Positions 1 to 45,638 of a stretch of 64,000 nt of DNA are shown piece after piece. The notes under the pieces were generated by a model, which searched no databases, had not been told where the DNA came from, and saw only the letters and a list, made by a program, of their open reading frames with translations. This DNA comes from Alphaproteobacteria bacterium (GTDB lineage: Bacteria > Pseudomonadota > Alphaproteobacteria > Bin95). The first letter of the stretch is position 1. Every line of letters starts with the position of its first letter. The translations under genes were made by a program, and so were the position numbers. The DNA is taken from assembly GCA_963665325.3 (NCBI GenBank), contig CAXXWS020000004.1, positions 1-64,000 of the forward strand. The letters are read 5' to 3'.

Positions 1-270
1 TTTGATATTTTTCTGTCTTCACCGGCCTCCGAACCCTTGACTTCCCGCCAGGCATCGCCTTCAATCGCCCCCGATTTGATGTTGCTCGTATGCGGTTTGA
101 TGACCGATATGCGGGCATTTCGGGGGCGGAGCGCGACGATGCCGGAAAGCGTTCGGTCAAAGGGTGACGATGATGAGGACGACGATGCCAACACCACATT
201 TTGCCGGGCTTCGCCCGCTGTCGCTCTGCGCCATCGTCCCCTCCATCACCGCGTGACCGAACGCTTTCCG

Positions 271-1455
271 ATGCCGAAACGGAGCACCCTCAGGCTGACG
301 AAGAGGATTGTGGACGGGCTCAAACCCGGCGGCAAGGACGCCATCTTCTGGGACCGCGACCTCGCCGGCTTCGGGGTCAGGGTCCATGCCACCGGGCGCA
401 AGCTCTACATCGTCCAGTCGAGGGGGCCGGCGGGCCTGAGGCGGGCGACGCTCGGGCCGGCCGGCGACAGGACCGTCGAGGAGCGCCGCCGCGAGGCCGC
501 GGCGGCCATCGACCGCATCAAGCGGGGCGAGGACCCCATGCCGCCGGAATCGGCGCCCGAGCCCACCGTCGCCGACCTGGCGGCACTCTGTCTGAAGGAC
601 CATGTCGCGGCGCGCTGCAAGCCGAGCACGGCGAAGAACTACCGCATGTCCATCGAGAACCACATCCTGCCGGCGCTGGGGACCAAGGCGCTGAAGGACG
701 TCGCGCCGGAAGACGCGGCGGGGCTTCACCACGGGCTGCGCGACACGCCGGCGGCGGCCAACCAGGCGATCTGGGTGCTCTCGAAGATGTTCTCGCTGGC
801 CGAGAGCTGGGAGATGGTCCCGCCCGGGTGCAACCCGTGCCGGCATGTCCGCCAGTACCGCGACACGCCCCGCGAGCGATTCCTGACACCCGACGAGTTC
901 CGGCGCATCGGCGATACGCTGAAGACCTTCGAGGCCGAGGGCTCGATGCAGCCCTCGGCCATCGCGGCGATCCGCCTGCTGATGCTGACCGGCTGCCGCT
1001 CGGACGAGATCCTGACCCTGCAATGGGACGACATCGACCGCGCGGCGCGGGTCTTGCGGCTCCGCGATTCGAAAACGGGGCCGCGCATGGTGCCGCTGAC
1101 AGGGCCGGTGCTGAAGGTGCTGGACGGCATCGAGCGGGAGGACGGCGTTCCCTGGGTGCTCAGGGGCGCGAAGCCGCGGAGCCGTCTGGCATGCCTGTCC
1201 TGGCACTGGCGGCGGGTCAGGAAGGCGGCCGGGCTCCATGACGTGCGGCTCCACGACTGCCGCCACAGCTACGCCAGCAGGGCGCTGGCGCTGGGCGAGG
1301 GCCTGCCGGTCATCGGGCGCCTGCTCGGCCATGCCCGGGTCGGCACCACCGCGAAATACGCCCACCTGGTGCGCGACGCCGAGAAGGCGGCCGCCGCCAG
1401 GACCGGCGGCAGCATCGCCGCCTGGATCATGCCCGGCGACGCCGAGGCGGCGTGA
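271..1455 (+). CDS. Tyrosine recombinase/integrase with N-terminal arm-binding (DUF4102-like) domain, copy 1
   Basis: N-terminal FWDRDLAGFGVRV. Catalytic residues R (GCRSDE), K (SKTG), HxxR (LHDCRH), H (LLGH) and Y (TAKYAH) are all present. Start placed at ATG 271 (MPKRSTLRLT). Confidence 0.93.
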   Translation: MPKRSTLRLTKRIVDGLKPGGKDAIFWDRDLAGFGVRVHATGRKLYIVQSRGPAGLRRATLGPAGDRTVEERRREAAAAIDRIKRGEDPMPPESAPEPTVADLAALCLKDHVAARCKPSTAKNYRMSIENHILPALGTKALKDVAPEDAAGLHHGLRDTPAAANQAIWVLSKMFSLAESWEMVPPGCNPCRHVRQYRDTPRERFLTPDEFRRIGDTLKTFEAEGSMQPSAIAAIRLLMLTGCRSDEILTLQWDDIDRAARVLRLRDSKTGPRMVPLTGPVLKVLDGIEREDGVPWVLRGAKPRSRLACLSWHWRRVRKAAGLHDVRLHDCRHSYASRALALGEGLPVIGRLLGHARVGTTAKYAHLVRDAEKAAAARTGGSIAAWIMPGDAEAA

Positions 1456-1466
1456 GGGACATCGCG

Positions 1467-2636
1467 ATGCAGCAGAGGACGATCTCCAACCGCGCCGTGG
1501 CCGCGATGACGGTCGAGCGCGACACGGTGTTCTGGGACCGGACCGTGACCGGCTTCGGGGTCCGGGTCTATCCGACCGGCGGCAAGGTCTATATCGCCCA
1601 GGCGCGGGGGCCGGAGGGGCCGAAGCGGGTGACGGTGGGCCGGCACGGCGTGCTCAACGCCGACGAGGCCCGCCGGAGAGCGGCGCTGATCGTCACGCGC
1701 ATCAAGGCGGGCGAAGACCCGGTGCCGCTGCCGCTCGCGGCCCGGGCCAGGGGCGGCCCGACCGTGGCCGACCTTGCGGCGCGCTATCTGGAGGACCATG
1801 TCGAGGTCCGGCTCAAGCCGAGGACGCAGACCAAGCTCCGCGGCGTGCTGCGCCGCCACATCCTGCCCGCGCTCGGCCGGCTGCCGGTCGAGGCGGTGGA
1901 GCGCCGGCAGGTCGTCGAGCTGCACCGCGGGCTGAGCGGCCGCCCGGTGGCGGCCAACCGGGCGGTCAAGACCCTGGCGCACATGTACCGTCTCGGCGAG
2001 GGCTGGGGCCTCGTGCCGGCGGGCTGCAACCCGTGCCGGTCGATCGAGAAGCATCCCGAGCGCGGCCGCGAGCGCTTCCTGACCGACGCCGAGTTCGCCC
2101 GGCTCGGGCGGGCGCTGGACGAGGCCGTGGACGCCGGAACCGTATCGCCCGTGACCGCGGCGGCGATCCGCCTGCTGATGCTGACCGGCTGCCGCAAGGG
2201 CGAGGTCCTCGCGCTGCCCTGGACGGACGTCGATCTCGACGCCGGCGAGCTCCGCCTTCCCGATTCGAAGTCCGGCCCCCGCGCGGTGCAGCTGCCGCCG
2301 CCGGCGGTGCGGCTGCTGGAGGCGCTGCCGCGCCGGGCGGGCAGCCCGTGGGTGTTTCCGGGCAGGGCTCCGGACGGCCGCTGTAGCGAGAGTGCGCTCG
2401 ACAACGCCTGCCGGGTAGTACGCGAGGCGGCGAAGCTGGAGGATGTGCGCATTCATGACCTTCGACACAGCTTCGCTTCCAGGGCGCTGGCACTCGGGGA
2501 AACGCTGCCGGTGATCGGCAAGCTGCTGGGGCACAACGATATCGAGACGACGGCGAGATATGCCCATCTCGCGCAGGATTCCGTCCACGAGGCGGCGGAG
2601 AGAATTGCCTGGAGCATCGCGGCGGATATCTTGTAA
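1467..2636 (+). CDS. Tyrosine recombinase/integrase with arm-binding domain, copy 2
   Basis: Motifs FWDRTVTGFGVRV, GCRKGE, SKSG, IHDLRH, LLGH and TARYAH. Paralog of the upstream integrase. Alternative GTG start at 1452 overlaps the upstream stop. Confidence 0.93.
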   Translation: MQQRTISNRAVAAMTVERDTVFWDRTVTGFGVRVYPTGGKVYIAQARGPEGPKRVTVGRHGVLNADEARRRAALIVTRIKAGEDPVPLPLAARARGGPTVADLAARYLEDHVEVRLKPRTQTKLRGVLRRHILPALGRLPVEAVERRQVVELHRGLSGRPVAANRAVKTLAHMYRLGEGWGLVPAGCNPCRSIEKHPERGRERFLTDAEFARLGRALDEAVDAGTVSPVTAAAIRLLMLTGCRKGEVLALPWTDVDLDAGELRLPDSKSGPRAVQLPPPAVRLLEALPRRAGSPWVFPGRAPDGRCSESALDNACRVVREAAKLEDVRIHDLRHSFASRALALGETLPVIGKLLGHNDIETTARYAHLAQDSVHEAAERIAWSIAADIL

Positions 2637-3167: not shown

Positions 3168-3389
3168 CGGGCCGGCGGTGACGTCCGAGGAGGACGCGCG
3201 GATCGGCGCGACCCCGCCGACCTTCGCCAACAAGCCGTACATCACGCCGATGGCGGACGGCGGCCATACGTATGGTCGGCCCGCCGCCATCCGCTGATTT
3301 GGCGGCCCCCGCCGATGGCAACGGAACGATCCCGCCTGTGGACAATCCCGCCTGTCGCCCCCGCCGGGGAAACGTGATAGGGTCTGACC

Positions 3390-3611
3390 ATGAGCAAGGT
3401 GCAGCATGATTCGGGTTCCGTCGCGACGGCCGCCGCGAACGGCCGGCTCGCGGAGGCAGCGCACTTGCAGGCGATCGAGGGCAATCCGCTGACGGCGGAA
3501 GAGATCGCCATGTTCGAGATGTTCGAGCGCGAGGGGTGGTCGCCCGAGCGGCGCCGCGCCCATATCCTCCGCCGGATCGAGGACCGAGGCCGCGCCGCCG
3601 CGGCGGAATGA
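3390..3611 (+). CDS. FicA/VbhA-like antitoxin
   Basis: 73 aa with LQAIEGN, resembling the (S/T)xxxE(G/N) inhibitory motif. Stop overlaps the Fic start (ATGA). Confidence 0.75.
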   Translation: MSKVQHDSGSVATAAANGRLAEAAHLQAIEGNPLTAEEIAMFEMFEREGWSPERRRAHILRRIEDRGRAAAAE

Positions 3612-4174
3612 GCGACCGCGACTACTGCTATCCGCCGGACTACACCGTTCTCCGCAACAGGCTGGACATCCGGGACGCCCCGGCGCTGGAAGCGGCGGAA
3701 CGCGAGCTTGTCGCCCAGCGCCTTGTCGAGCCCGTGCCGGCGGGCGATTTCGATCTTGAGCACCTGAAGGCGATCCACCGCCACCTGTTCCAGGACGTAT
3801 ACGCCTGGGCGGGCGAGATCCGCACCGTCGAGATTGCCAAGGACGGGAGCCGGTTCCAGCCGAGGCGGTTCATCGAAACCGGCATGGCCGACATTCACCG
3901 CCGCATCGTAGCGGCGGGATATTTCCGGGGTCTGGGGCCGGACGGGTTCGCCGGGGGCGCGGGTCCGGTGCTGGGCGACGTCAACCATGTTCACCCGTTC
4001 CGCGAAGGCAACGGGCGCACGCAGCTTCAGTATCTGAAGCAGCTTGCCGCGCGCGCCGGGCACGCCATCGACCTCACCCGGATCGACCGCGCCGACTGGC
4101 TGGCCGCCTCGCGCCGGTCCAACGCGGGCGATCACGCCGCCATGACCCGCTGCATCCGCCAGGCGCTGTCCTAA
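3608..4174 (+). CDS. Fic-domain toxin (class I, FicT-like)
   Basis: N-terminus YCYPPDYTVLRNRL, then IHRHLFQDVYAWAGEIR and Fic motif HPFREGNGRTQL. Confidence 0.92.
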   Translation: MSDRDYCYPPDYTVLRNRLDIRDAPALEAAERELVAQRLVEPVPAGDFDLEHLKAIHRHLFQDVYAWAGEIRTVEIAKDGSRFQPRRFIETGMADIHRRIVAAGYFRGLGPDGFAGGAGPVLGDVNHVHPFREGNGRTQLQYLKQLAARAGHAIDLTRIDRADWLAASRRSNAGDHAAMTRCIRQALS

Positions 4175-4383
4175 CCCCCGATTTTGACGACGGCGTAGAA
4201 GCGCGCTTCTTCGCCGGCCCTGCCGACTCTGGTGTGCCGCGTCGCCTTCCCGCAGCCGTCTCCATCCGCGCGCTTTTCTCCATCGAGAGGAGAGGCATGG
4301 CCGTGAGCGGGGCGGCGGTCGGGGCGTCCGGGGGAGGGCGTCCGGCCGTCGATTTCCCTCATCGGCACGAAGGAGACGGCATC

Positions 4384-4710
4384 ATGACGGCAGCCATGGC
4401 GATACCCGGCAACACGGCGGAGACGTTTCTGGTTCATTTCTTCGGCACCGGCCTGGCCGACGACCGCTACGTCGTCGAGCGGTTCCGGGCCCGCGCGGAC
4501 GGCGACATCGTTCCCGCCCCGGCCGAGGCGCTCGTAGCGAAGAACCGGCGCAAGACGAAGCGCGCCACGGCCACGCTGAAGGCGGTCCGGGAGATGCGCC
4601 CCGCCACCACCGAGATCATCATCTGCACCGGCCTCAAGACCCGCGGCGGCATGCAGGTCTGGGGTTCGATCGCCGCCGGAATCCTGTGCGACCGCAAGCA
4701 GAAGGGCTGA
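4384..4710 (+). CDS. Hypothetical protein (leading region)
   Basis: AAGGAG RBS before ATG 4384; 108 aa with GC3-rich codons. Confidence 0.6.
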   Translation: MTAAMAIPGNTAETFLVHFFGTGLADDRYVVERFRARADGDIVPAPAEALVAKNRRKTKRATATLKAVREMRPATTEIIICTGLKTRGGMQVWGSIAAGILCDRKQKG

Positions 4711-4793
4711 CGCCTCTTTCCGGGACGTCCTGCCGGCCCGATGCCGGCGGGGCGTCCTCCGTCCATTCCCGGATTGGCAGGAAGGGGGCCATT

Positions 4794-6056
4794 GTGGCTT
4801 ACCGCGATATCGACGCCCGACGCAGGAACGATCTTGCGCGCTACCACCGTCGCAACGAGGCTCGGCGCGCGGCCGCCTTGTGCCTGCGGTGCGGCAAAAC
4901 CCAACCCGCGCCCGAGCGCACCCTCTGCAAGCCCTGCAACGACAAGCAGAACCGCGCCAGCCGCGCGCGGGACGCCAGGCTCCGCGCCGAGGGCAAACCC
5001 AGGCGGGACCCGGAACAGGCGAAGCTCTACGAGCGCGAGCGTGGCCGCCGCCAGCACGCCGAGCGCGTCGCCGCCGGCATCTGCACGAAATGCGGCCGGG
5101 CCTCGGCACGCCCGGACCGCACGACCTGCGAGCCCTGCGCGGAGAAGCATCGCGCCCGCGACCGCGCCCGTCACGCCAGGGCCAAGGCCGAGGGGATACC
5201 CTACGGCGGACGCGACCCGGAAGCCCGGCGCCGGGCCGGCCGGAAGCAGAGCCGCCGCCGCAGCGAGCTCCGCAGGGCCGCCGGTTTGTGCATCCGCTGC
5301 GGCGCCGTCCCGCCCGAAGAGGGACGGTCGATGTGCGAGCCATGCCGGGACGACCGGCGGGCCGCGAAACGCGCACTCCACGCCGGGCGCCGGGCGAAGA
5401 GCCTCTGCGTCCAGTGCGCGACGCCCGCGCCGGACGGCAAGGCCTATTGCGAACCCTGCGCCGTGGCCAAGGAAGGGCGGCGGAACCTGAAGGCCAAGCG
5501 GGAGGCCGATCGCCGCAGATATTCCGAGCGGAGAGCCAGGGGCGATTGCACCACCTGCGGCAAGCCGGCCGGCGGGGCGGCCGAGTGCCAGGCCTGCCGC
5601 GACGCCGCCCGTGCCCGCTACGATGCCCGGAGAGCCGCCGGGGTGTGCGTCAAGTGCCAAACCCCCACCTACGGCGGCGCGGCCTACTGCGCGCCCTGCG
5701 CCCTCGTCAAGGAAGGGCGGCGCGACCGCGAGGCGGAGTACGCCGCCCGCCGCCGGCGCTATGCCGACCGGAGGACGAAGGGCCGCTGCGTCGAATGCAA
5801 CACGCCTTCGCCGGGGGTGGCGCGATGCGAGCCCTGTTCGCGCAAGCACCGCGAGGGCTCGGGGGCATTCCGCGGCATCCCGATCTGGGACCCGAGCTGG
5901 ACGGTGATCGAGATCGCCACCGGCCGGGAGCACGGCCCCTATGACAGCGAGGCCGACGTCGCGCTCTGCCTCGCCTTCGCCAGGCTCTCGCGCGACGAGG
6001 TGGAGGTGATCGCGGACGCCAGCCCGATGGCGACGATGACCGCACCGCCCTGGTGA
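4794..6056 (+). CDS. Tandem Cys4 zinc-finger repeat protein (7 modules), Arg-rich
   Basis: Seven CxxC-x9-11-CxxC modules, each preceded by a basic helix (RRAAGLC-like), and an acidic C-terminal domain. GTG start after a GGAAGGGG purine run. Confidence 0.85.
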   Translation: MAYRDIDARRRNDLARYHRRNEARRAAALCLRCGKTQPAPERTLCKPCNDKQNRASRARDARLRAEGKPRRDPEQAKLYERERGRRQHAERVAAGICTKCGRASARPDRTTCEPCAEKHRARDRARHARAKAEGIPYGGRDPEARRRAGRKQSRRRSELRRAAGLCIRCGAVPPEEGRSMCEPCRDDRRAAKRALHAGRRAKSLCVQCATPAPDGKAYCEPCAVAKEGRRNLKAKREADRRRYSERRARGDCTTCGKPAGGAAECQACRDAARARYDARRAAGVCVKCQTPTYGGAAYCAPCALVKEGRRDREAEYAARRRRYADRRTKGRCVECNTPSPGVARCEPCSRKHREGSGAFRGIPIWDPSWTVIEIATGREHGPYDSEADVALCLAFARLSRDEVEVIADASPMATMTAPPW

Positions 6057-6168
6057 GCCGGCAGCGGCGCCATCCCCTGCTGCGCCGCCGGCCCGCCGCC
6101 CGCCGTCCGACATGCGTATGGCCGGCCGTGCGCCCGCCGACCCGGACCACACCGAAGGAGTTTCCATC

Positions 6169-6435
6169 ATGACCGCCTGCCTGCCCGACAACCCCGCGTA
6201 CTGTTTCTACTCCGCCGCCGCCGACGACGGCGAGCCGCCGCAGATTCGCATCCTGGTCGAGGGCTTTCCCTTCGCCATCCCCACCGCGCTGGTCGCCCTG
6301 AACCGGGCCGACGGCCTGGCGGTGTGCGATTCCCTCAACCGGCCGCTCGGCTGGACGCGGGAGACCTGGACCGAGTTCGCCGCGCGCTGCCTGCGCGCCG
6401 GCGCCGGCGACATGAACGGCAGCACCCTGCATTGA
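6169..6435 (+). CDS. Hypothetical protein (leading region)
   Basis: AAGGAG RBS; 88 aa beginning MTACLPDNPAYCFYS. Confidence 0.65.
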   Translation: MTACLPDNPAYCFYSAAADDGEPPQIRILVEGFPFAIPTALVALNRADGLAVCDSLNRPLGWTRETWTEFAARCLRAGAGDMNGSTLH

Positions 6436-6613
6436 CCCGCGCCCGATGCCGGCGCGGCAGCACTCCCCGCCCGTTGCGGTCGGAGCGGGGGCCGCCGATC
6501 CACCGGGGGGTCGGCCGGCCGGGAGGTCGAGAGGGGCTTTCGCCGGGCGAGCGCCCGGTTGGGAGCGAGGGAGGGTTTCCGTCGCGGCCGGGCGCGGCAC
6601 GGGAGATCCCATC

Positions 6614-6769
6614 ATGTTCGCCTTCGACACCGATTACGACCCTGTCGGCCCCGCCACCGACGCCGTCCTCGCCGAGATCGGCCTCGATGCCCGTTCGGTC
6701 AGGGACGCGCTGAGCGAAGACCTTGCCCGGCGCTGCCCCGACCGCGAGGCCCCGGCGGACGGGAGCTAG
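6614..6769 (+). CDS. Small acidic hypothetical protein
   Basis: GGGAG RBS; 51 aa beginning MFAFDTDYDPVGPATDAVLAEIG. Confidence 0.5.
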   Translation: MFAFDTDYDPVGPATDAVLAEIGLDARSVRDALSEDLARRCPDREAPADGS

Positions 6770-6868
6770 AGGAGGGCTTCGAGAAGATGAGTGGACGGGG
6801 CTGGAGAGAGCGTTCTCCGGTCCCGCCGCTCGACCATCGTCAACATCGAGAACTGAAGGAGCATCGCG

Positions 6869-7333
6869 ATGAGCTTCGGAATGAACCGCGTCGAACTGAT
6901 CGGCCGCCTGGGCGCCGACGTCACCGTCAACCAGCTGATGAGCGGGGGCCGCGTGGCCAATCTCAGCATCGCCACCGACGAGTCGTATTTCAACCGCGAC
7001 GGCGAGAAGGTCGACAGGACCGAGTGGCACAGGGTCGTCACCTTCCAGGACGGGCTGATCGACATGCTGGTGCGCCACGCGAAGAAGGGCCGCCTGGTCC
7101 ACGCCGAGGGCAAGTTGCAGACCCGCCGGTGGAAGAAGGACGGCGAGGACTCGGACCGCTTCTCGACCGAGATCCTGGTCGTGCCCGGTCACAGGGTGCA
7201 GTTCCTCGATCGCCCGAACGGGGCCAACGGGAACGGCGCCCGGGCCGCGCAGGAGCCGGCGAACGGCGAGACCGTGTCGGCCGGCGGCGCCCCGGCGCAG
7301 GCCGACGAATTGGGCTCCGAAATTCCCTTTTGA
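6869..7333 (+). CDS. ssb: Single-stranded DNA-binding protein
   Basis: Motifs MNRVELIGRLGAD, TEWHRVV and EGKLQTRRW; acidic C-terminal tip ending EIPF; AAGGAG RBS. Confidence 0.96.
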   Translation: MSFGMNRVELIGRLGADVTVNQLMSGGRVANLSIATDESYFNRDGEKVDRTEWHRVVTFQDGLIDMLVRHAKKGRLVHAEGKLQTRRWKKDGEDSDRFSTEILVVPGHRVQFLDRPNGANGNGARAAQEPANGETVSAGGAPAQADELGSEIPF

Positions 7334-7362
7334 GCCCCGACTGCATCCTCCCTCCCAACTCG

Positions 7363-7392
7363 GGCGGCCGCTTCGACGGCCGCCTTTTTTTC
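7363..7392 (+). terminator. Rho-independent terminator after ssb
   Basis: GGCGGCCG-CTTCGA-CGGCCGCC stem followed by T8. Confidence 0.8.
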
Positions 7393-7476
7393 TGCCGTGG
7401 ATCCGGAGTCCGCCGCCGCGCTCGGAGGGGAGAAGAGCTTGCGAACGGGCAAGCCGTTCGGAGGAGGGAGGGAGTC

Positions 7477-7818
7477 ATGGCCGCCGTCGTCAATCTCAGG
7501 CACGAGCCGAAGCTGCGCGAGCAATTCGAATATGCGCAGGTGGTGAACAACACCGTGCTGATCGACCGCCGCACGAAGTGGGGCAATCCGTTTCGCGTGA
7601 CGGACGGGGTCTCGCATGCCGAGGCGGTCGCCCGCTACCGCGTCCATCTCTGGCGGCAGATAGGCGCGGGCGAGGTGACGCTGGAAGAGCTCGCCGAACT
7701 CGACGGCTGCTGGCTGGCGTGCTGGTGCGTGGGCGACGGACATCCCTGCCACGGCGAGGTGCTCGAACGGGCGGCCGCCTGGGCGGCGCGGGTGCTGGCC
7801 GAGCGGTCAGATGCGTGA
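7477..7818 (+). CDS. DUF4326 family protein
   Basis: Signature IDRRTKWGNPF ... LACWC ... PCHGEVL; GGAG-rich RBS. Confidence 0.85.
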   Translation: MAAVVNLRHEPKLREQFEYAQVVNNTVLIDRRTKWGNPFRVTDGVSHAEAVARYRVHLWRQIGAGEVTLEELAELDGCWLACWCVGDGHPCHGEVLERAAAWAARVLAERSDA

Positions 7819-7898: not shown

Positions 7899-8140
7899 CG
7901 TCGTGAAGTCCCATTGTGATCCACGTGCTCGCTACAGCAACCCTGCGGGTCCTCCGGTCGCTGCGCTCCCTGCGGCCTGGACAAGAAGCTCTAGGGGCGG
8001 ACCGTGAAAGCCGACGACCGTGAAGATCGCTGGCGCGATCTTCCGCACCACTCGCCGACTTTCCGCACCACTCCGCCCCAAGAGCTTCTAGGCCCAGGTG
8101 CTTCCGCTGCGCGCGCGGTTCCCAACAGGACATCACGACG
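7899..8140. promoter_or_regulatory. Large nested inverted-repeat structure, candidate ssDNA (Frpo-like) promoter
   Basis: 7899-7911 pairs with 8128-8140 (12/13). 7976-8000 pairs with 8073-8098 (~25-bp imperfect stem). Internal hairpin GAAGATCGC/GCGATCTTC. Lies directly upstream of the first leading-region gene. Confidence 0.55.
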
Positions 8141-8183
8141 GGGATCGGCCCCGGAACGTGCAACCGATCGCAAGGAGATCGTC

Positions 8184-9104
8184 ATGACACTCATCGACAC
8201 CATCGAGACCGCCGCGCAGTCCGTCACCGCGAACGTCTGCGAACAGGCCCAGCTCTTCGGCGCGACGCCCGAGCGCGGCGAGTTCGACACCCGCGAAGTC
8301 TGGGACGAGGACGACGCCACCGACGCGGTGAGCGAAGCCTTCCGCATCCTGGCCCAGGGCGTCGCACCCGACGGGTTCCAGATCGCCGACGAGCGCGAGA
8401 GCCTGCTCTGGGGCTTCGTCAACATGATCGACGCACAGACCCGGAGACTCGACCGCGCCGCCGACAAGCTGATGCCCGAACTGCGCGACCTCCAGAAGGC
8501 CCAGGACGGCACCGAGATCAAGTCGCTGGAGCTGGAGATGACCACCCACCGGGCGCAGTGCCTCACCGACCGACGCGACGCCTTCGAGACCATGCGCGAC
8601 CACGCCGCCGACGCCTACCGCAACGCGACGGGCAGCGTCTGGCGTCCGAGGCGCGGCAGCCACGTCTCCGAGACCGGCAGGCTGACCAGCGCGGCCATCG
8701 ACGCCCGCGACTACCAGCGTGCGAGGAAGGACCGCAAGACCATGGCGCATCTGCCGCAGGGCACCCTCGTCGCCATCGCCGGCGGCAGGGACGTCGCCGA
8801 CCCGGCCGCGGTGATCCGCATGCTCGACAAGACCCGCGCCAAGCACGCGGACATGGTGCTCGTCCATGGCGGCGGCCCCGGCGTCGAGAAGATCGCGGCA
8901 AGCTGGGCCGAGCGCAACGGCGTCCACCAGGTCGTCTGCAAGCCGGACTGGGACCGCCACGGACGTGCCGCCCCGTTCCGCCGCAACGACGAGCTGCTGA
9001 ACCTCCTGCCGAAGGGCGTCATCGCCTTCCCCGGTTCGGGCATCACCGACAACCTCGTCGACAAGGCGCGCACCCTGGGCATCCCGGTCTGCCGCGCCGG
9101 CTGA
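8184..9104 (+). CDS. DUF2493 (YspA/SLOG-like C-terminal domain) protein typical of alphaproteobacterial conjugative elements
   Basis: N-terminal LLWGFVN and GSVWRPRRGS; C-terminal VLVHGG...CKPDWDRHGRAAPFRRND...GVIAFPGSGITDNL; AAGGAG RBS. Confidence 0.85.
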   Translation: MTLIDTIETAAQSVTANVCEQAQLFGATPERGEFDTREVWDEDDATDAVSEAFRILAQGVAPDGFQIADERESLLWGFVNMIDAQTRRLDRAADKLMPELRDLQKAQDGTEIKSLELEMTTHRAQCLTDRRDAFETMRDHAADAYRNATGSVWRPRRGSHVSETGRLTSAAIDARDYQRARKDRKTMAHLPQGTLVAIAGGRDVADPAAVIRMLDKTRAKHADMVLVHGGGPGVEKIAASWAERNGVHQVVCKPDWDRHGRAAPFRRNDELLNLLPKGVIAFPGSGITDNLVDKARTLGIPVCRAG

Positions 9105-9619
9105 ACCGCAGCGCCTCGCGGGCCGCGTCGTCATCCCGGCATCGGGACGGCGGCGCGGCCCGTTTCGTTTCGACCGACAGTGCTGCGGCGGCGCCATCCT
9201 CGCGCGCGCTTCGCGCCGCGCTCGCCATCGCCGACGGTCGTTGCGACCGTCGCGACGATCATCATGGCAATCGTCATGGTCGCCATCCCCGGCAGGGTGC
9301 TTCGCACCACTGCCGTCGTCGCCGTCGGCGGTGCCGATCGCCGAACCGATCGCCTGCCGATGCACTTGTGCGCGCCCGCTGTTGCGCCCGGCGCGCACCA
9401 CCGCCCGCAGAGCGCGCGGCAATTCCGCCGGTGCTCGTGACGGCGACCGCGCCGCGCCCGCCGTCACTTCGCTCGACACCGCGTCCCTTCGCGGTGTCCG
9501 CACCAGCGGCCACTCAAGCGCCGCGGTGGCTCCCCTCCGCCGGGTTCCCCGGCGTTGATTCCCCCATCGAAATTTCAGCGCCGATTGGCCCTCCGACCGG
9601 CCTTGGCCGGCGGTAAATT

Positions 9620-9643
9620 CCACACCCCACGCATCGGTGATGC
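9620..9643 (-). other. oriT: oriT nick site (MOBF, F-plasmid-like)
   Basis: Minus strand reads GCATC-ACC-GATGCGTGGGGTGT^GG. The 14-mer TGCGTGGGGTGTGG is identical to the F nic core, and the adjacent short inverted repeat ends in TGC as in F. Predicted nick between 9622 and 9621. Confidence 0.8.
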
Positions 9644-9736
9644 CCGTGGCGCATGCGCGCGCAGGGCCCACCTTTTCAATGACTTGGGGGAACTTTGGGC
9701 GCCTTCGGGCGTCCTGTTCTTGTTTGACGGAGTCGC

Positions 9737-9925
9737 TTCTCTGGAGAACCGCGGGGGTTCTCTGGAGAACCGTGACCAAGCCGCTGAAATCGCTGATGTT
9801 TTTTCCTCGCGCTTCTCTGGAGAAGCGCCCCGGCCGACCGAGGGTTCTCCGGAGAACCGCGGAATCCGGCCAAAAGTTCCCTGGAGAACCGTCCAGATCG
9901 CCCGGAAATTCTCTGGAGAACCGCG
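9737..9925. repeat. Six copies of palindromic box TTCTC(T/C)GGAGAA
   Basis: Copies at about 9737, 9758, 9813, 9845, 9877 (TTCCCTGGAGAA) and 9909. Several extend to longer palindromes, e.g. GCGCTTCTC-TG-GAGAAGCGC and GGTTCTCCGGAGAACC. Confidence 0.9.
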
Positions 9926-10012
9926 CCTTCCGGCCCATTGCCGCCGCCTGAATCGTGCCGTCGCGCGCCCGGGCCGGGCCTTCCCGCAGTCCGGCCAGGC
10001 GCGCTGCGGGCG

Positions 10013-10369
10013 TTACTCCGGGCCCTCGCCCAGCAGCTCTTTCTGAAACGCCCGGGCCTCCGCGACCAGCTCGTCCAGCTCCTCTTCGCGGCCCTCGTCG
10101 AGCATGTCGGTGCGCATTTTCGTCACCATGATATGCGCCGCGCGGAAGGCCCTCTCGATCAGCGGGGCGAGACGGTCCCGGGCCGCACCCCCGTCGGCCA
10201 TCGCTTCAAGGGCTGCGAAGCGCACGAACTCGGGCCCCGTGAGGCCGCGCTCGTCGGCATGGACCTCGATCCGGTCCCACTCCGCGTCGAGGAACCGGAT
10301 CGAATGCGGGCTGCGTTTCTCCGCCTTGCCGGCTTCGACCGGCTCCGTTTTCTGGATTTCGCCGTCCAT
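10013..10369 (-). CDS. Ribbon-helix-helix protein, putative relaxosome accessory factor
   Basis: SPHSIRFLDAEWDRIEVHADERGLTGPEFVRFAAL fits the RHH pattern. Lies between the relaxase and oriT. Confidence 0.7.
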   Translation of the reverse strand: MDGEIQKTEPVEAGKAEKRSPHSIRFLDAEWDRIEVHADERGLTGPEFVRFAALEAMADGGAARDRLAPLIERAFRAAHIMVTKMRTDMLDEGREEELDELVAEARAFQKELLGEGPE

Positions 10370-10429: not shown

Positions 10430-13400
10430 TCAGAGGCCGAGGTCCATTTCGCCCTTTCCGCGCCCGCGCGACGGCGGTTCCGGTGTCTTCTCGGGGGATT
10501 TTTCCGCCTGCCGGCCCTTCCCGATGCCGTCCCCGGCGCCGCGTTGCGGCCGCGACGGGCCCTCCGGCGCGGGCTTTTGCCGATCTTTCGCAGTCTTCGC
10601 GGACGGGTCTTCCGCCTTGTCGCCGCTCTTTTCCGGTTGCCGCTCGGGCTGTCGGCCCTCCGCGCGGACACCGTCCGCGGCCTTGCCGGGCTTTTCCCGC
10701 ACCATCCCGCCGATGGCTTCGAGCGCGGCGATGCGCTCGCCCGTGACCGCCTCCAGCTGTTCGCGCAGCGCCTTCGCATCGTCGGTGACCAGCTCGGCCC
10801 GGTCGCGGGCGCGGGATATCTCGACATAGAAGCTCTTCTGCGTGGTGAGATGTTTGTGCCGGGCCTCCATCGCCGCGATCACCCTGTCCACGGTGCGGCC
10901 CTGGAAGGCGTGCACGGTCGAGGCCCAGGCATGATCGAGATGTCTGAGCTGCGGGTCGTTCGCCCCGAGTTCGAGCGTCTTGCCGTCCTCCAGGCGGAAG
11001 GTCACGCGCTCGCCCTTCACCGCAACCACCTCGGCGGTGCGGCTGTTGACGAGGCCGAGGCCGGCATCGTTGCGGGTCCAGCGGATGCGGTCGCCGGCCC
11101 GGAGCTGGATATCCTCGACCTTGTAGACCTCGCTGCCGCCCCGGCGCCCGCCGATCTGTTGCGGCTTCCAGGCGACGGACCCGCCCCTGCCATCGTCGAG
11201 CAGCACTTCGCGGGACTTGTAATCGACCCCGATCACCGTCCGCTCGTTCCCTTTCTCGACGCCGATCCGCTTGTACGGGCGGTGGAACGCGACCACGTCT
11301 CCGGGACCGTAGTTGTCCGCGAGCGCCTTCTCGGCATTGGTGTAGCCCTTCGAGACCAGCCGCTCGGACTCCATGGCGGGCCCGTGGATGCGGCCCTCGC
11401 GGGCGAGCCGCTCGCGGATATGGCCATTGATCTGCTGGCGGAGCTCGTGGGAAGGCGCCATCACGCCGGTGTTCTCGCGCTCCTCCCGCGAGAGCCGGAG
11501 CCATCTTGCGGCGACCGCGCCGGCGATATTGTCGGGCTTCACCTCCGCGACATTGTCCCCGAGCCTGTCGAAGGCCCTGCCGATCTCGCCCGCGAGGCTC
11601 GCTTCCACCGCCTCCTTCAGGGCGGGATCGCGCTGGCGCATGATCTCGTCCATGACCGCGGTCTTCATGCCGGCGGCCTGGAGCTGGGCGAAGGGCTTGC
11701 CGGCATCGACCGCGGCGAGCTGCTTCGCGTCTCCCACCAGCACCACACGGGGAATGCGCAGCGCGTTGGCGACCCGGAGCAGGTCGCGGGCCTGCACGGT
11801 GGAGGCGAGCGAGCCCTCGTCGACCACCAGGATGGTCTTCGCGAACGCCGCGCGCATCTCCCTGGCGCCCTTCTTCGTCAATCTGCCTTCGGCGACGCCG
11901 GCATTGCGGGCGAGGAAGCGCTGCAGGGTCTCGGTCGCGATGCCGGCTTCCGAGGCCAGCGTCTCGGCCGCCGAGGCGGACGGCGCGAGCCCCGTCATGC
12001 GCCAGCCCTTCTTCTCCGCCAGCGTTCGGGCCCGGTTCAGCATGGTGGTCTTGCCGGTGCCGGCATAGCCCTGGACGCCGACGGTGCGATCCTTCGCCGA
12101 CAGGATCGTCTTCACCGCGTCCTTCTGCCCGGCCGTGAGCGGTCCCCGGCTGAGATGCCCCTGCACCTGCCAGCCGCGCATGACCGTCCGCCCGCGGCCC
12201 TCGCCGGCACGCATCGACGCCACGGTCTCGCGCTCCTCGGCCACCGTGCGGTCGAGGCTGAGCGAATCCTCCGCGCCGGGCAGGTCGACGGCATGCAGCG
12301 CGCTGGCCTTCTCCAGGGCGGCGACCTCGCGCTCGGCCTCGGAGATCGTGACCGCGCCCGGCGCATGGGCGAGGATGGCGGCGAAGAGATCGCTGCGCGA
12401 GAATACCGCCTGGCGCTCCGAGAGATGCGCCAGCGCCCAGGCGACGGCCTCCGACGCGGGCGACGGAGGCGCGGCTTCGGGCGATAACTCGCGCTCGGGT
12501 GCTTGCCCCGGTCCGTCGAGCGGCAGGTCGGCCTGCCGCATTGCACCGGCAGTCTTGCCCGAAACGACCGACTGCGGCGTGCCGCCGATGTCATGCTGCC
12601 GGGCTCGATCCGCCGCTTCCCGAACCGGCGCAGCGGTCTTCTCTACGGCCTCCGCAACCAGCGTCTTCGTATCGAGGCCGAGATCGGCGGCCTGGTTTGC
12701 CCACACGTCGCGCAGCTCCGCCCGGTCGATGTCGCGCTTCGCGGCCCGCGTCATCAGCGCCGCGCGCTCGGCGAGGCGCGGATTGTCGGCGGAACTGCCG
12801 AGACCGCGCTCCGCCATCGCCGCCTCGATCTCCGCGCGCCGGGTCGAGAAGGCCGCAATCGCCTCGCGCGGCACGCCGGCGATCTCGAACCTGCCGTCGG
12901 CATGGCTCTTCTCGATGCCGTAGCCGAGCCTCGCCAGGCCGGCCGCCAGCTCGTTGCGATAGAGCATGCCGATCAGCTTCTGCTTTTCATAAAGCCCCTC
13001 ATTGGCCATCGAGCGCCACTTGCCGTCTTCGCCCTGCACCATGTTGGCGAGCACGGCATGGGTGTGCAGCTGCGGATCGAGATTGCGCGAGGTGTCATGC
13101 CGGAACGCCGCCGCCACGATCTTCTGGTTGCCGGTGCGGGCGATCTGTCCGGTTTGACCGTCTTTCATCCTCGTCTCGGCGGCGTGATGCTCTACCCAGG
13201 CGAGCGTCGCCGCGACGGCGCGGTCATGCGCCTCGACGATGCGGTCGTCGCCGCCGACCAGGGCTGCGATGGACACGGACTTGGGCGCGCTGAAGGTCAG
13301 GTCGCGGCCGGGCCGATGCAGGACCTCGCCGTCCTTGCCGCGCCGCCCGAGCTGCCGCCCGGAGCCGTCCGGCACCCGGCCTTCGAGAACGGCGCGGAAG

Positions 13401-13561
13401 GTGTCGGGATCGACCGGCCCCTTCAGGCCAAGCTCGTCCGCGCCCCGGCCCACCCAGGCGCTGCCTTCCCTGTGCTCGTCGGAGTCCTTCGCATAGTAGC
13501 CGTCGCGCTCGTAATAGGACGCGCCCTGCGACGCCGAGGACAATGCGCCGATCGACAGCAC
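10430..13561 (-). CDS. traI: MOBF (TrwC/TraI-like) relaxase-helicase
   Basis: N-terminal YY-x4-YY, DLTFSAPKSVS and HUH motif HDTSRNLDPQLHTH. Helicase motifs GYAGTGKT, VVDEGS and TVHAFQG. Confidence 0.97.
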   Translation of the reverse strand: MLSIGALSSASQGASYYERDGYYAKDSDEHREGSAWVGRGADELGLKGPVDPDTFRAVLEGRVPDGSGRQLGRRGKDGEVLHRPGRDLTFSAPKSVSIAALVGGDDRIVEAHDRAVAATLAWVEHHAAETRMKDGQTGQIARTGNQKIVAAAFRHDTSRNLDPQLHTHAVLANMVQGEDGKWRSMANEGLYEKQKLIGMLYRNELAAGLARLGYGIEKSHADGRFEIAGVPREAIAAFSTRRAEIEAAMAERGLGSSADNPRLAERAALMTRAAKRDIDRAELRDVWANQAADLGLDTKTLVAEAVEKTAAPVREAADRARQHDIGGTPQSVVSGKTAGAMRQADLPLDGPGQAPERELSPEAAPPSPASEAVAWALAHLSERQAVFSRSDLFAAILAHAPGAVTISEAEREVAALEKASALHAVDLPGAEDSLSLDRTVAEERETVASMRAGEGRGRTVMRGWQVQGHLSRGPLTAGQKDAVKTILSAKDRTVGVQGYAGTGKTTMLNRARTLAEKKGWRMTGLAPSASAAETLASEAGIATETLQRFLARNAGVAEGRLTKKGAREMRAAFAKTILVVDEGSLASTVQARDLLRVANALRIPRVVLVGDAKQLAAVDAGKPFAQLQAAGMKTAVMDEIMRQRDPALKEAVEASLAGEIGRAFDRLGDNVAEVKPDNIAGAVAARWLRLSREERENTGVMAPSHELRQQINGHIRERLAREGRIHGPAMESERLVSKGYTNAEKALADNYGPGDVVAFHRPYKRIGVEKGNERTVIGVDYKSREVLLDDGRGGSVAWKPQQIGGRRGGSEVYKVEDIQLRAGDRIRWTRNDAGLGLVNSRTAEVVAVKGERVTFRLEDGKTLELGANDPQLRHLDHAWASTVHAFQGRTVDRVIAAMEARHKHLTTQKSFYVEISRARDRAELVTDDAKALREQLEAVTGERIAALEAIGGMVREKPGKAADGVRAEGRQPERQPEKSGDKAEDPSAKTAKDRQKPAPEGPSRPQRGAGDGIGKGRQAEKSPEKTPEPPSRGRGKGEMDLGL

Positions 13562-13564: not shown

Positions 13565-15817
13565 TCAGAACCAGTCGGGCGTTGCGGAAGCTTCCCTGGA
13601 CCCTGCGCTTTCATTGGTACGGGCGCTATTCTGCGGCTCCGATCCGGCCTCCGCCTCGCCGGCATCGGGAGCAGGGACAGCGGTTTCGTCCGGTTTCGGT
13701 GCCGCTTCCGAGGGCTGGGCCACGGTTTCACCGTCATGATCTTCGCCGCGGCGATCCTCGATGTCGCAGTCTGTTTTCGCCTGAGCGTCGGTTTCCGCCG
13801 GCGATTCATCCGGTTCGTCCCGGAGGGACGCGGGCTCCGGTTGCGCATTCTCCGTCTTGGGCTCGTCGTCCTTGCAATGGCTGTTCCCATTGCCGACGGC
13901 CGCATCCTCGCCGCCATCACGGCATGACGATGCGATGCCCGTCTCCGCCGCCACCGTCTCTCCCGGCAGCGGGATCGGGTCCAGCTCGCCCTGCCGGAAC
14001 GCCGGCCCGGCAGTCCCCGGCACGTCTTCGAGCAGCTCTTCAACGGCCGCTTCCCGAGTACTTTCGGCTCCTTCCTTTCGCGGCACGAACCGCTCGGCCG
14101 ATGCGGCGCGTTGGATATAACGGAGCCGTATGGAGGCGACCGGGAAGGGGCCGGGGAACTTGAGATAGCCTTCCAGGTTGGGCAGCCGCATGATCTCCGA
14201 GGGCAGCGCCAGGGCCCGCAGCTCGCGTCTCGGCGTCAGGCTCACCCCGTCGCGGATGGTGTTGGCGCCGTAGGAGTAGCCCTCGGCCACCTCCTCGACC
14301 TCGCTTCGGCCGAGGCTGTCGGCCGACCACTGCGCCGTGTCGCGGTCGGGCGCGGCCAGCACCACCCGCGTGCCGCAGAGGCCCGATATCGTCTCCGCGC
14401 CGTTCCGGCCGTAGAGGTCGCGCAGCGCCGAGGCGACCTGCACGCCGAGCACGAAGCAGCCGCCGAACTGCCGGGACTCCGCGAGGCCGGGCTGCAAGGA
14501 CGGCACCTGGTGCAGCGTCGGCAGCTCGTCGAGGATCACCCAGATGCGCCGCCCGTCGCTTTGGGCGAGCGACAGCATGGCGTTGACCGCGATCTCCAGC
14601 CAGGTCGAGATCAGCCCCCTGAGGCTGGCATGCTGGTCGCCGCGCGAGGTGAGGAACAGGAACCCGTCCTGCCGCTCCCGGGAGATCCATTCCCGGATCG
14701 AGAACGGTTTTCCCTCGTCGGGCAGGAACTCGAAGGCGGCGAGATTGGCGGTCAGCATGGCGCGCACGCTGAGCGCCGTTTTCGGGTTCTCGGGATCGAC
14801 GATCGACTGCGCGACCGTGCCCTCCATCGCCTGGGCGAGCGCCGTAAGATCGGTCTTCAGCAGATGCTCGACCAGCACCCGGTTTTGCGTGACGCCCTTC
14901 TCGCGCAGCACGCCCGCGCCGTTGGCGAAGAGCTGGCGGGCGGCGGTGACCCAGAACGGATCGACGGTGTCCTTCTGCTGCGGGATCAATGCCGCGGCCA
15001 TCATGTCGAAGTCGCGGGGACCCCTTGCCTCCAGGAAGGGCGACCAGCGGGGCGCCCTGGCATCGAGCGGGTTCATCAGCACGTCGCGGGCCGGATCGAA
15101 GAAGGTCGCGGTGTAGGAGCCCATCTTGTCGTAGATCACGCAGCGCTCGCCGCGGGCGCGGATCTGGGCCACCAGGTCGGAGATCAGCACAGTCTTGCCC
15201 GAGCCCGTGGTGCCGGAGACGATCGTGTGCTGGGTCTCGGTCCTCTCCGGATACGGGATGCCGGCAATGCGGTACGGCCGGAGCCTCTTCCCGCCCGGCG
15301 CGCGGTCGAGCAGGCGCAGAGGGAGGGGCCGCACCCGGCGATGCAGTTCGGAAGCGGTGACGAGTTCGGCGCCCCTGATGCGCTTCTGCCGCCCGAGCTG
15401 CACGCCGCGATACCAGAAGACGGCGAGGAAGAGCGCGATCAGCCCGGCGCCGGTCTTGAGGCCCAGCCAGGCGCTGGCGAACGTCTCCGCCTTGATCCGC
15501 TCGCGCGCCTCGAGCGCGGGCGCCGAGGCGGCGATGTCGCGGATCCGGAGCGTCCGGCGCGTGCCGTCGGCGAAGCGTATTTCCTGGCCCGAGTCCGGTG
15601 CGTAGCCGAGCGCGAGCTTGGTCTCGGCCAATGTCGCCATGCCGGCGGCGTACCACTCCGCGCCCGAGGTCGAATGCCAGAGGTTCCAGGCCGGCACCGC
15701 GACCGTGGTGAAGGCGGCGAACAGCAGCGCGGCCTGGAACAGCTGGCCCCACATGCGGATGCCGTGGAAGACGGTCTGGCCGCCCCGGAGCGTCGAGCCG
15801 CCGACGCCCCGGATCAT
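13565..15817 (-). CDS. traD: F-type type IV coupling protein
   Basis: Two N-terminal TMs, Walker A GTTGSGKT, ILDELPTL, and a long acidic C-terminal tail ending PDWF. Start at ATG 15817 (MIRGVGG). Confidence 0.93.
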   Translation of the reverse strand: MIRGVGGSTLRGGQTVFHGIRMWGQLFQAALLFAAFTTVAVPAWNLWHSTSGAEWYAAGMATLAETKLALGYAPDSGQEIRFADGTRRTLRIRDIAASAPALEARERIKAETFASAWLGLKTGAGLIALFLAVFWYRGVQLGRQKRIRGAELVTASELHRRVRPLPLRLLDRAPGGKRLRPYRIAGIPYPERTETQHTIVSGTTGSGKTVLISDLVAQIRARGERCVIYDKMGSYTATFFDPARDVLMNPLDARAPRWSPFLEARGPRDFDMMAAALIPQQKDTVDPFWVTAARQLFANGAGVLREKGVTQNRVLVEHLLKTDLTALAQAMEGTVAQSIVDPENPKTALSVRAMLTANLAAFEFLPDEGKPFSIREWISRERQDGFLFLTSRGDQHASLRGLISTWLEIAVNAMLSLAQSDGRRIWVILDELPTLHQVPSLQPGLAESRQFGGCFVLGVQVASALRDLYGRNGAETISGLCGTRVVLAAPDRDTAQWSADSLGRSEVEEVAEGYSYGANTIRDGVSLTPRRELRALALPSEIMRLPNLEGYLKFPGPFPVASIRLRYIQRAASAERFVPRKEGAESTREAAVEELLEDVPGTAGPAFRQGELDPIPLPGETVAAETGIASSCRDGGEDAAVGNGNSHCKDDEPKTENAQPEPASLRDEPDESPAETDAQAKTDCDIEDRRGEDHDGETVAQPSEAAPKPDETAVPAPDAGEAEAGSEPQNSARTNESAGSREASATPDWF

Positions 15818-15939
15818 CGCCGCAGCGCGGGCCGCGCCGCAAGGAGCCGGAGGCCGGCGGAGGGCGGGGCGAAGGCGGCGGGGCCGAAGGGAGGCTTCGG
15901 GAATTCTCCTTGCCCGTCCCGGCGGTATGATCGGAGACC

Positions 15940-16305
15940 ATGGACATGACACAAACGCACAATCGGCGGGGCAGCGGCGCCGATGCGCCCCGGACCACCT
16001 GGATCGAGCGCCTCATCGTGCTCGGCGGGTTCGCCGTCGCGGCGCTCTACACGCCGGTCGCCGCAATCCTCGGAACCGGTATGGAGTCCATCGGCCCGCT
16101 CTGGCTGGCGGCCGTCGTCTGGACCGTGCCGTCCTCTCTCGCCGTGGCGCTGCGGCGCGGCTTCGTCCACCGTGACTGGTCGGCCTTCGGCGATTACGAG
16201 CTGCCGGACGGTAGCGAGGAGAGATTCGACTGGGATACTCGTTCCGGCCGGTATGCCTACAAGCGCATTGCCGAGGAACAGGAAAGACTCCTGCTCGGGA
16301 ACTGA
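15940..16305 (+). CDS. Small inner-membrane protein convergent on traG, putative entry exclusion (Eex-like)
   Basis: Two hydrophobic segments then a charged C-terminus; GGAG RBS. It is the only + strand gene in the tra block and ends 15 bp from the traG stop. Confidence 0.6.
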   Translation: MDMTQTHNRRGSGADAPRTTWIERLIVLGGFAVAALYTPVAAILGTGMESIGPLWLAAVVWTVPSSLAVALRRGFVHRDWSAFGDYELPDGSEERFDWDTRSGRYAYKRIAEEQERLLLGN

Positions 16306-42220: not shown

Positions 42221-42530
42221 GACCTGCTCCAATCCCTTGACCGCGATGCACACGCCGCCGAAGCGTAAAGCCCTCCGGGAAGTGTGCCCGATAACCTCCC
42301 GTGACCCATAACAAAATTACCGCCGCAGGGAAAGGGCGATTCGATTCGGCCGCCACGCAGTACTTCGCCGGCGGATCCGCGGAACCGATGCGGCGGGGCA
42401 TGGGGTATGGGCCGCCGCATCTTGCATGAGGAGACGCGGCGATGGCGGTTTCGATCCGAACCGTGGTGGAGCGGCATGCAACCCGGCGCGTGGCGTCGTC
42501 GCCTGCGTGGCGAGCGCGCACACGCTCAAC

Positions 42531-45554: not shown

Positions 45555-45631
45555 CCGACCTTGATCCGGGCATCCGTTTCCGCCGCCGCGACGACCCCGA
45601 GGGAGATGGCCGGAACGAGTCCGGCCATGAC
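45555..45631. repeat. Degenerate REP-like palindromic element
   Basis: Ends GATGGCCGGAACGAGTCCGGCCATGAC, same family as 46611 and 55966. Confidence 0.65.
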
Positions 45632-45638
45632 GGGAAGT

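Follow-up and report, generated by a model that had tools for sequence, protein, structure and literature searches.

The leading region of a conjugative element is nowadays viewed as a reservoir of functions for establishment and against host defence; most knowledge of it derives from plasmids of cultured Proteobacteria and Firmicutes. Zinc modules in series are known from topoisomerase I, in which tandem Cys4 zinc ribbons hold single-stranded DNA. According to Samuel et al. 2024 (PMC11541004), plasmid leading regions carry genes for single-stranded DNA-binding protein (SSB) and anti-defence genes in an orientation that allows transcription from the transferred strand (T-strand). The analysis described here concerns a stretch of 64,000 nt from an uncultured alphaproteobacterial genome (GenBank assembly GCA_963665325.3, contig CAXXWS020000004.1, positions 1 to 64,000), referred to as the window in its full length, which carries an integrative conjugative element (ICE). 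Within this island, the gene at 4794..6056 (+) encodes a protein with seven Cys4 modules, hereafter the zinc protein, whose family is described nowhere in the libraries or literature searched. Tentatively, and with somewhat less than even confidence, the zinc protein is read as an ICE establishment protein that binds nucleic acid and, alongside SSB, acts on the island DNA as it enters. Binding of nucleic acid is favoured because of the charge of the protein, its Cys4 modules and its fixed place in a co-directional unit with ssb in the DNA predicted to enter the recipient first.

4794..6056 (stop codon included), plus strand: zinc protein gene (P0001), encoding the seven-module Cys4/arginine-helix protein of 420 aa; from the list of open reading frames (ORFs), translation, codon GC and the ratio of nonsynonymous to synonymous substitution rates (dN/dS)

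This gene is genuine and conserved. It corresponds to the last 1263 bases of the frame open at 4686-6056 (+), with a GTG start at 4794 preceded by GGAAGGGGG, which ends five bases before, and gives a product of 420 residues. The GC content at the three codon positions of its frame is 0.70/0.64/0.89, the last figure being that of the third position (GC3). In six of six pairs with relatives dN/dS was 0.21-0.35, equal to or below that of the neighbouring genes, evidencing ordinary purifying selection with no arms-race signature. Since the largest DNA repeat inside the gene does not exceed 28 nt, the duplications that gave rise to the modules are old and do not reflect recent slippage.

A pattern search of the zinc protein found exactly seven CxxC-x(9-13)-CxxC modules, the same ones and with the same spelling as those listed in an earlier description of this DNA made from its letters alone (the sequence-only reading), followed by an acidic domain at the C-terminus:

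4881..4937, plus strand: zinc module 1, CLRC...CKPC, residues 30-48 (pattern search, as for the next six)
5082..5138, plus strand: zinc module 2, CTKC...CEPC, residues 97-115
5289..5345, plus strand: zinc module 3, CIRC...CEPC, residues 166-184
5406..5459, plus strand: zinc module 4, CVQC...CEPC, residues 205-222
5547..5597, plus strand: zinc module 5, CTTC...CQAC, residues 252-268
5646..5699, plus strand: zinc module 6, CVKC...CAPC, residues 285-302
5787..5837, plus strand: zinc module 7, CVEC...CEPC, residues 332-348
5859..6053, plus strand: acidic C-terminal domain, beta-beta-alpha-beta, residues 356-420, net charge -6, conserved ...TAPPW tip (model, charge and homologs)

The protein contains 29 Cys residues, 28 of them inside the modules, and among 20,000 shuffled versions none had seven or more modules (maximum, two). 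When 46 modules from seven genes were aligned, the four Cys were the sole invariant columns, and the modules share merely 27-55% identity with module 1. Judged from the paired CxxC, the 9-13-residue spacing and their invariance in homologs, the modules are of the Cys4 zinc-ribbon/zinc-knuckle type and are predicted to bind zinc. The sequence-only reading had also placed the motif RRAxGxC before each module; an Arg-rich stretch does precede all of them, with the relaxed form R[RV][AT][AKR][AGS]xC in 7/7, while the exact form occurs in 3/7 only. Overall, R+K amount to 100 residues vs 54 D+E (net +46), with a net charge of +52 in residues 1-355 and of -6 in residues 356-420 (65 aa, isoelectric point 4.3), meaning that the acidic C-terminal domain of about 60 aa proposed earlier is real, though mildly acidic. 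The median net charge of 120 homologs is +0.11 per residue.

The AlphaFold2 model of the zinc protein, built with 45 homologs, reached a mean predicted local distance difference test score (pLDDT) of 84 and a predicted template modelling score (pTM) of 0.35. In it, the same unit appears seven times: a helix leads into a short knuckle that holds the first CxxC, and after a loop the second CxxC opens the helix that follows. Modules 1-2 and 2-3 are connected by two-helix hairpins, and the later modules are separated by one or two shorter helices that together comprise about 20-30 residues. Because the pLDDT is high, the pTM low and the unit repeated seven times, the model reads as rigid beads on a string with no fixed mutual arrangement. 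Residues 309-420 modelled apart (pLDDT 84.4) show an end domain with the order strand-strand-helix-strand followed by a low-confidence tail. Of the 106 homologs that possess this domain, 102 have a Trp among their last four residues.

Searches of family libraries gave nothing significant for the zinc protein: NCBIfam and PADLOC (defence systems) yielded no match, PHROGs a single row with E 0.023, and Pfam only DZR_2 (PF18912; 17.3 bits vs 27) and DZR (PF12773; 15.1 vs 27.3), both below the gathering cut-off. Among PDB sequences the top row was the HNH endonuclease 4h9d, neither significant with the whole-protein profile (E 0.52) nor with the 46-module profile (E 0.096). In the ESM Atlas, the protein fell into its own unnamed cluster (0.97), followed by viral clusters bearing DZR_2 (0.87), and residues 350-420 gave no usable named match. 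Rfam returned no match at the gathering threshold, and no tRNAs were detected. In the literature searches, no work joining a zinc ribbon with the leading region of conjugative elements was found, and nothing relevant was retrieved on zinc in ICEs of sponge-symbiont Alphaproteobacteria. Three known families were compared in more detail. An HNH site is excluded because the spacers between the Cys pairs (GKTQPAPERTL, GRASARPDRTT and others) contain no His, the best sequence match having E 0.096. The zf-C4_Topoisom ribbon of topoisomerase I had no Pfam match at E<=0.1 and was absent from the PDB sequence rows, as well as from the listed fold rows obtained with the model of the whole protein. The C4 finger of DksA/TraR also lacked a Pfam match at E<=0.1, DksA appearing in the PDB profile search with E 3.

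Homologs are abundant. A word-indexed search in which 8000 candidates were scored gave at least 782 at E<=1e-3, and 1780 cluster representatives matched at E<=1e-3 when these were searched exhaustively (337 of them at 1e-10 and 83 at 1e-30). The best 120 homologs share 44-88% identity with the zinc protein, and the few with a name are "hypothetical protein" entries of Rhodospirillaceae or Alphaproteobacteria metagenome-assembled genomes (MAGs). Together with the query, these carry four modules in 7 proteins, five in 12, six in 20, seven in 55 and eight in 27, some of the short ones being possibly fragments. In an even sample of the class, a match at E<=1e-10 was present in 8 of 401 genomes (6 of 307 genera), usually several per genome. 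The genome to which the window belongs (hereafter, the own genome; five contigs, 5.58 Mb) contains eight loci of the family, among them one that is identical and lies at a contig end, two with 89% identity and diverged or tandem paralogs. It also contains 17 TrwC-like matches, so this genome is crowded with MOBF islands and its assembly breaks there. Contig C3 of the same genome opens (C3:1-9394) with an identical copy of the first 9.1 kb of the window, from the integrases to the YspA-related gene. Two sponge-metagenome runs contain 75-78% of the words sampled from the stretch, and no RNA runs are among the sequencing runs listed as holding it.

Several relatives of the gene are interrupted by mobile elements. 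An element of ~3.4 kb composed of a 707-aa large serine recombinase and a 152-aa helix-turn-helix protein disrupts two different zinc protein genes of one MAG (L019:6579-10001 and L023:5717-9115), and two further loci (L030 and L011) have a zinc protein gene with other insertions.

The window, which begins at a contig end, is assigned to an ICE because it combines integrases, a TrwC relaxase, a coupling protein and F-type transfer genes. The features that place the zinc protein gene within this island are the following:

37..2636, plus strand: pair of tyrosine integrases in tandem, at the distal end of the predicted leading region (library search)
3536..4174, plus strand: Fic-domain gene (Pfam)
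4234..4710, plus strand: h158, conserved upstream partner of the zinc protein gene, family unknown, conserved core of ~108 aa probably from 4384 (locus comparison)
6112..6435, plus strand: h107, conserved gene downstream of it, family unknown (locus comparison)
6869..7333, plus strand: island SSB gene (family libraries)
7362..7395, plus strand: terminator-like hairpin after ssb, 9 pairs and a T-run (consensus scan only)
7477..7818, plus strand: DUF4326 gene, ATG at 7477 (Pfam)
8004..9104, plus strand: YAcAr (YspA-related SLOG) protein gene, the first past the nic-like site (Pfam)
9430..9660, no strand: conserved non-coding block, candidate core of the origin of transfer (oriT), conserved in nine loci
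9620..9632, minus strand: nic-like site GCGTGGGGTGT/GG, nick predicted between 9622 and 9621 (match to the F nic core)
9737..9920, no strand: six palindromes TTCTCYGGAGAA, between the nic-like site and the NikA-like gene (repeat scan)
10013..10369, minus strand: h118, candidate NikA-like ribbon-helix-helix relaxosome accessory protein (E 6.4e-4, 20.2 bits vs a cut-off of 27)
10430..13561, minus strand: TrwC-family (MOBF) relaxase-helicase (library search)
13565..15952, minus strand: TrwB/TraD-type coupling protein (library search)

On the plus strand the order is integrases, small unknown genes, Fic, h158, zinc protein, h107, a small ORF, SSB, DUF4326 and YAcAr; past a 0.9-kb gap, the minus strand carries the NikA-like gene, TrwC, TrwB/TraD and an F-type set with TraH, N, U, C, V, B, E and L. 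The hairpin at 7362..7395 is likely the end of a transcription unit formed by h158, the zinc protein gene, h107 and ssb.

This arrangement recurs in other islands. In a synteny survey of 30 fetched loci with a match, in which the denominators correspond to loci with enough flank, h158 was present within 600 bp upstream of the zinc protein gene in 22/25 loci and h107 downstream of it in 13/24, while SSB lay within 4.5 kb downstream in 12/18 and the YspA-related gene within 9 kb in 11/17. In the own genome, all five loci with full context display the order TraD, TrwC, h118, nic motif, YspA, (DUF4326), SSB, (h107), zinc protein and h158.

TraI and TrwC belong to the same relaxase family. The motif GCGTGGGGTGTGG at 9620-9632 (-) has its sole match in the window there, vs 0.04 expected, and is identical over 13 bases, and at the preceding T too, to the F nic core; the F-plasmid oriT oligonucleotide bound and cleaved by TraI reads 5'-TTTGCGTGGGGTGT^GGTGCTTT-3', where ^ marks the nick, in the accessible part of PMC2504302. 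As the relaxase remains on the 5' end created at nic (PMC3074121, accessible part), the DNA located 3' of the nick enters first. Since the short motif alone is weak, the assignment of the nic-like site rests on position, flank and orientation. The first 120 bp past the YspA-related gene and the block at ~9430-9660 are conserved in related loci despite being non-coding, and the minus strand of 9105-9700 folds at z = -6.9 vs shuffles, as an oriT would. Six of the motif copies in the own genome lie 0.3-1.8 kb beyond a TrwC gene with a longer flank in common, and the motif points at the YspA-related gene in 5/5 zinc protein loci with full context. Where the fetched loci extend 6 kb or more downstream, a relaxed form of the motif lies on that side on the minus strand in 10/17 and on the plus strand in 0/17.

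If nicked at this motif, the island would transfer its minus strand leftwards in the order YspA, DUF4326, SSB, h107, zinc protein, h158, Fic and integrases. The zinc protein gene would then lie in the leading region, 3.6-4.8 kb 3' of the nic-like site on the nicked strand, and the transferred minus strand would serve as template for the leading genes of the plus strand, the zinc protein gene included. This reasoning from sequence makes the premise of an early-transferred, T-strand-templated gene well supported; the assignment to the leading region holds only if the motif is a real nick site. The sequence-only reading had called the region early-transferred and transcribable from the T-strand, and the nic-like site speaks for this by inference, while an excess of hairpins of the single-stranded-promoter kind was not seen. 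On context and family, the present data are in line with that reading: ssb and DUF4326 genes do lie downstream on the same strand, as does a YAcAr/SLOG gene, homologs (surveyed here to carry four to eight modules) belong to the same accessory cluster of MOBF/F-type ICEs, the family is absent from Pfam, NCBIfam, PHROGs and PADLOC at significant scores, and the profile and structure searches it had proposed, now run, gave no match to a characterised family. New with respect to it are the nic-like site, the direction of transfer predicted from it, sister islands devoid of the zinc protein, the selection figures, the end-domain model with its terminal Trp and the phage relatives.

We infer which site is nicked, that the protein binds zinc and nucleic acid, when the gene is expressed and what the end domain does, and the establishment reading can be worded as the following sequence of events. 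With the transferred strand as template and a single co-directional unit shared with the ICE's own ssb, expression would be early, and the zinc protein would be made together with SSB soon after entry of the island. Its seven Cys4 modules, each clamped between Arg-rich helices (net +52), would form a flexible string of polycationic modules able to bind the incoming DNA, either as single strand or as fresh duplex, largely without sequence specificity. The acidic end domain with its Trp tip may be the docking site of h158, h107, SSB or a host factor or, alternatively, may fold back and temper binding by self-inhibition. A bolder form of this proposal, speculative and rather improbable, would be that h158 and the zinc protein constitute an undescribed two-gene leading-region system, in which a polycationic zinc "clamp chain" of 4-8 modules is loaded with SSB as a protamine-like shield against recipient nucleases or sensors, the Trp-tipped domain recruits a host or island partner, and the phage versions with 2-4 modules serve the same purpose.

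A number of observations weigh against the establishment reading. The PDB fold searches provided no match in support of nucleic-acid binding: Foldseek gave none at E<=1e-3 with either the whole model or the end-domain model, and in the exhaustive VIA-align search the best scores (Z 3.7 with the end-domain model, 4.2 with the whole model) are rated as noise by the tool. With regard to transfer and expression, the own genome contains nine copies of the short nic motif vs ~5.9 expected by composition, the hairpin adjoining the motif is no more stable than shuffles (z -0.04), minus-strand folds compared with shuffles, no Frpo model being used, gave no single-stranded-promoter structure at 6436-6868 (z +0.5) or 3168-3389 (z -1.3), and a consensus scan found no sigma-70-like promoter. 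Searches by tblastn with the low-complexity filter on detected no zinc protein homolog in 72,556 plasmid records or in 50,697 phage records. One pair of h158 and a short zinc protein gene, at ~1.183 Mb of contig C1 of the own genome, had no SSB, TrwC or integrase match within 12 kb with the queries used. Finally, two related ICEs of the own genome retain the nic motif, the YspA-related gene, DUF4326 and SSB without h158 and the zinc protein:

Own-genome C1:528000-547000 (L032): sister ICE without the zinc protein
Own-genome C4:806000-836000: sister ICE without the zinc protein

Upstream of its h107 homolog, the sister island on C1 carries a gene for a 1498-aa methyltransferase and strawberry-notch helicase protein, and a Gp49/HTH_37 pair adjoins this gene; the region read of the C4 island includes the C-terminal end alone of a homologous large protein. 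The existence of two sister ICEs lacking it means that the zinc protein is dispensable for transfer as such, and this, along with the methyltransferase-helicase found in the slot, argues for exchangeable leading-region cargo and not for a part of the transfer machine.

The same variable slot, with the methyltransferase and strawberry-notch helicase protein in the relative devoid of the zinc protein and the Gp49/HTH_37 pair nearby, would also suit an anti-defence factor blocking a nuclease or nucleic-acid sensor of the recipient, a rather unlikely explanation. The basic array may cover the target DNA, or the acidic end domain may act as a decoy for a DNA-binding defence protein. The gene has the predicted leading-region location and T-strand-templated orientation that are reported for anti-defence genes of plasmids (PMC11541004); in the window it has a Fic gene 0.6 kb upstream of it, and module number varies from 4 to 8. 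The DNA mimics p56 and AcrIIC5 are among the weak, non-significant fold rows of the end domain (Z 3.3-3.4), but these values fall within the noise of the tool, PADLOC gave no match and the dN/dS of 0.21-0.35 is not above that of the neighbours.

Doubtful as well is a sequence-reading regulator, in which each module would read a few base pairs like tandem eukaryotic zinc fingers and which may repress or activate ICE genes or mediate immunity or incompatibility among related ICEs of one genome. The modular architecture with its variable module count would suit such a role, and the presence of at least eight family loci and 17 TrwC-like matches in one genome makes interplay between islands plausible. 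A potential target exists 3.7 kb downstream, the six-palindrome array, for which 11 matches were found vs 0.19 expected (both strands, one mismatch). These palindromes, however, adjoin the NikA-like ribbon-helix-helix gene, a more ordinary candidate binder, and are confined to the two closest of 31 loci (L001 and L002), while the zinc protein is far more widespread; they are likely binding sites of a relaxosome accessory protein. In addition, the non-Cys/Arg residues of the modules are well conserved between orthologs, with no specificity switching seen, and a net charge of +52 suggests backbone binding.

In L001, a near-identical public record, an insertion of ~3.8 kb separates the oriT block from the NikA-like gene (L001:15100-18900); it falls within the palindrome array, at the equivalent of window 9865-10030, and shows a distant tyrosine-integrase-like match.

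F-like plasmids carry TraR, and it is conceivable, albeit quite improbable, that the zinc protein binds RNA or RNA polymerase and boosts early island expression in the manner of ribosomal zinc-ribbon or DksA/TraR proteins. The helical hairpins between modules 1-3 in the model and weak sequence rows for DksA (E 3) and the ribosomal proteins eL43 and eL42 point in this direction, but these rows are far from significant, Pfam zf-dskA_traR has no match at E<=0.1 and the fold searches were without match. That the frame is a shadow ORF or decaying repeat in GC-rich DNA and no functional gene, as might be thought from the overlapping antisense ORF of 574 aa (common in DNA of 70% GC) and from the mobile elements that interrupt several relatives, has next to no chance and is already refuted by its GC3 of 0.89, dN/dS of 0.21-0.35, invariant Cys pattern, full-length homologs in hundreds and locally confident fold model.

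Other features of the window were noticed. A small conserved ORF of ~51 aa (6614-6769) lies between h107 and ssb, and a similar one is found beside ssb in the sister ICE on C1 (C1:539574-539822). In the predicted leading region, a 73-aa ORF (3390-3611) overlaps the start of the Fic gene and could be an antitoxin-like partner; a Fic family is among the gene families of supplementary file 4 of PMC11541004. A second SSB gene is present at 24437-24838 (-) within the F-type transfer operon. At 41777-42111, ~34 tandem copies of the 8-nt unit GCGACCCG occupy the 5' part of a 2116-aa Calx-beta/LapA-like ORF (35903-42253, -). Because the unit length is not divisible by three, gain or loss of copies would alter the reading frame, and the array is possibly a phase-variation tract. 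At 45555-45763, three TGTCATG-rich tandem units of 41 nt adjoin a 79-nt repeat; two further copies of this repeat are present in the window (46618-46696 and 55973-56051).

Altogether, a large family without annotation, with an unusual seven-fold zinc architecture, appears fixed beside ssb in the ICE DNA predicted to enter first, and the ICEs that carry it are multi-copy in uncultured Alphaproteobacteria. If the zinc protein binds the incoming strand, it would represent a new type of SSB partner in conjugative establishment, and a function would be suggested also for the related small phage proteins. The assignment of the nic site, in turn, supplies a testable oriT for this group of ICEs.

In comparison with known systems, the C-terminal Cys4 ribbons of bacterial topoisomerase I resemble the zinc protein by concept only, as Cys4 modules in series. 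In the HNH endonuclease 4h9d of Geobacter metallireducens, a basic helix runs into R-G-x-C-x-x-C-G as in each module; however, the 9-13-residue spacers of the zinc protein have no space for the catalytic beta-beta-alpha-metal motif. Pfam DZR_2 and DZR likewise describe tandem CxxC...CxxC ribbons, but these models span one ribbon pair, whereas the zinc protein is a helix-flanked seven-fold array with an end domain. With the leading-region genes of conjugative plasmids (ssb, psiB, ardA/ardC and methylases in the accessible part of PMC11541004) the gene shares its ssb-adjacent place on the side transferred first and its orientation, the coding strand being complementary to the transferred strand. 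It differs from them in that the protein has no sequence or fold relation to the named members and no Frpo-like hairpin was detected, and its host is an ICE of uncultured Alphaproteobacteria and no plasmid. As far as the source is accessible, its main text mentions zinc zero times, and other families of Cys-rich or zinc-ribbon proteins are found in its supplementary file 4.

The only relatives above noise are small multi-zinc-ribbon proteins of uncultured tailed phages, found with Foldseek among predicted viral structures (BFVD). Eight entries were matched (E 1.9e-5 to 9.5e-4), including A0A8S5SE21 ("double zinc ribbon protein"), A0A8S5SE27 and B6CXI6, the best local fit having a template modelling (TM) score of 0.59, a root mean square deviation of 3.6 and 35% identity over 96 columns. 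In IMG/VR, where E-values are relative to the candidates alone, 47 viral-contig loci encode proteins with 2-4 modules and 26-38% identity (one short match of 26 residues reached 69%), and a 187-aa protein with three modules obtained only a sub-threshold DZR score. An example from this database is:

L033:2989-3552: multi-zinc-ribbon protein from IMG/VR

The phage proteins differ from the zinc protein in having 2-4 modules only and in lacking the acidic C-terminal domain, the Trp tip and the h158/SSB context, and as they are themselves uncharacterised they explain no function. They do share its grammar, namely a basic helix, G-x-C-x-x-C-G, a short loop, C-x-x-C and a helix, and are also borne by mobile elements; the module type is therefore one that mobile elements have in common.

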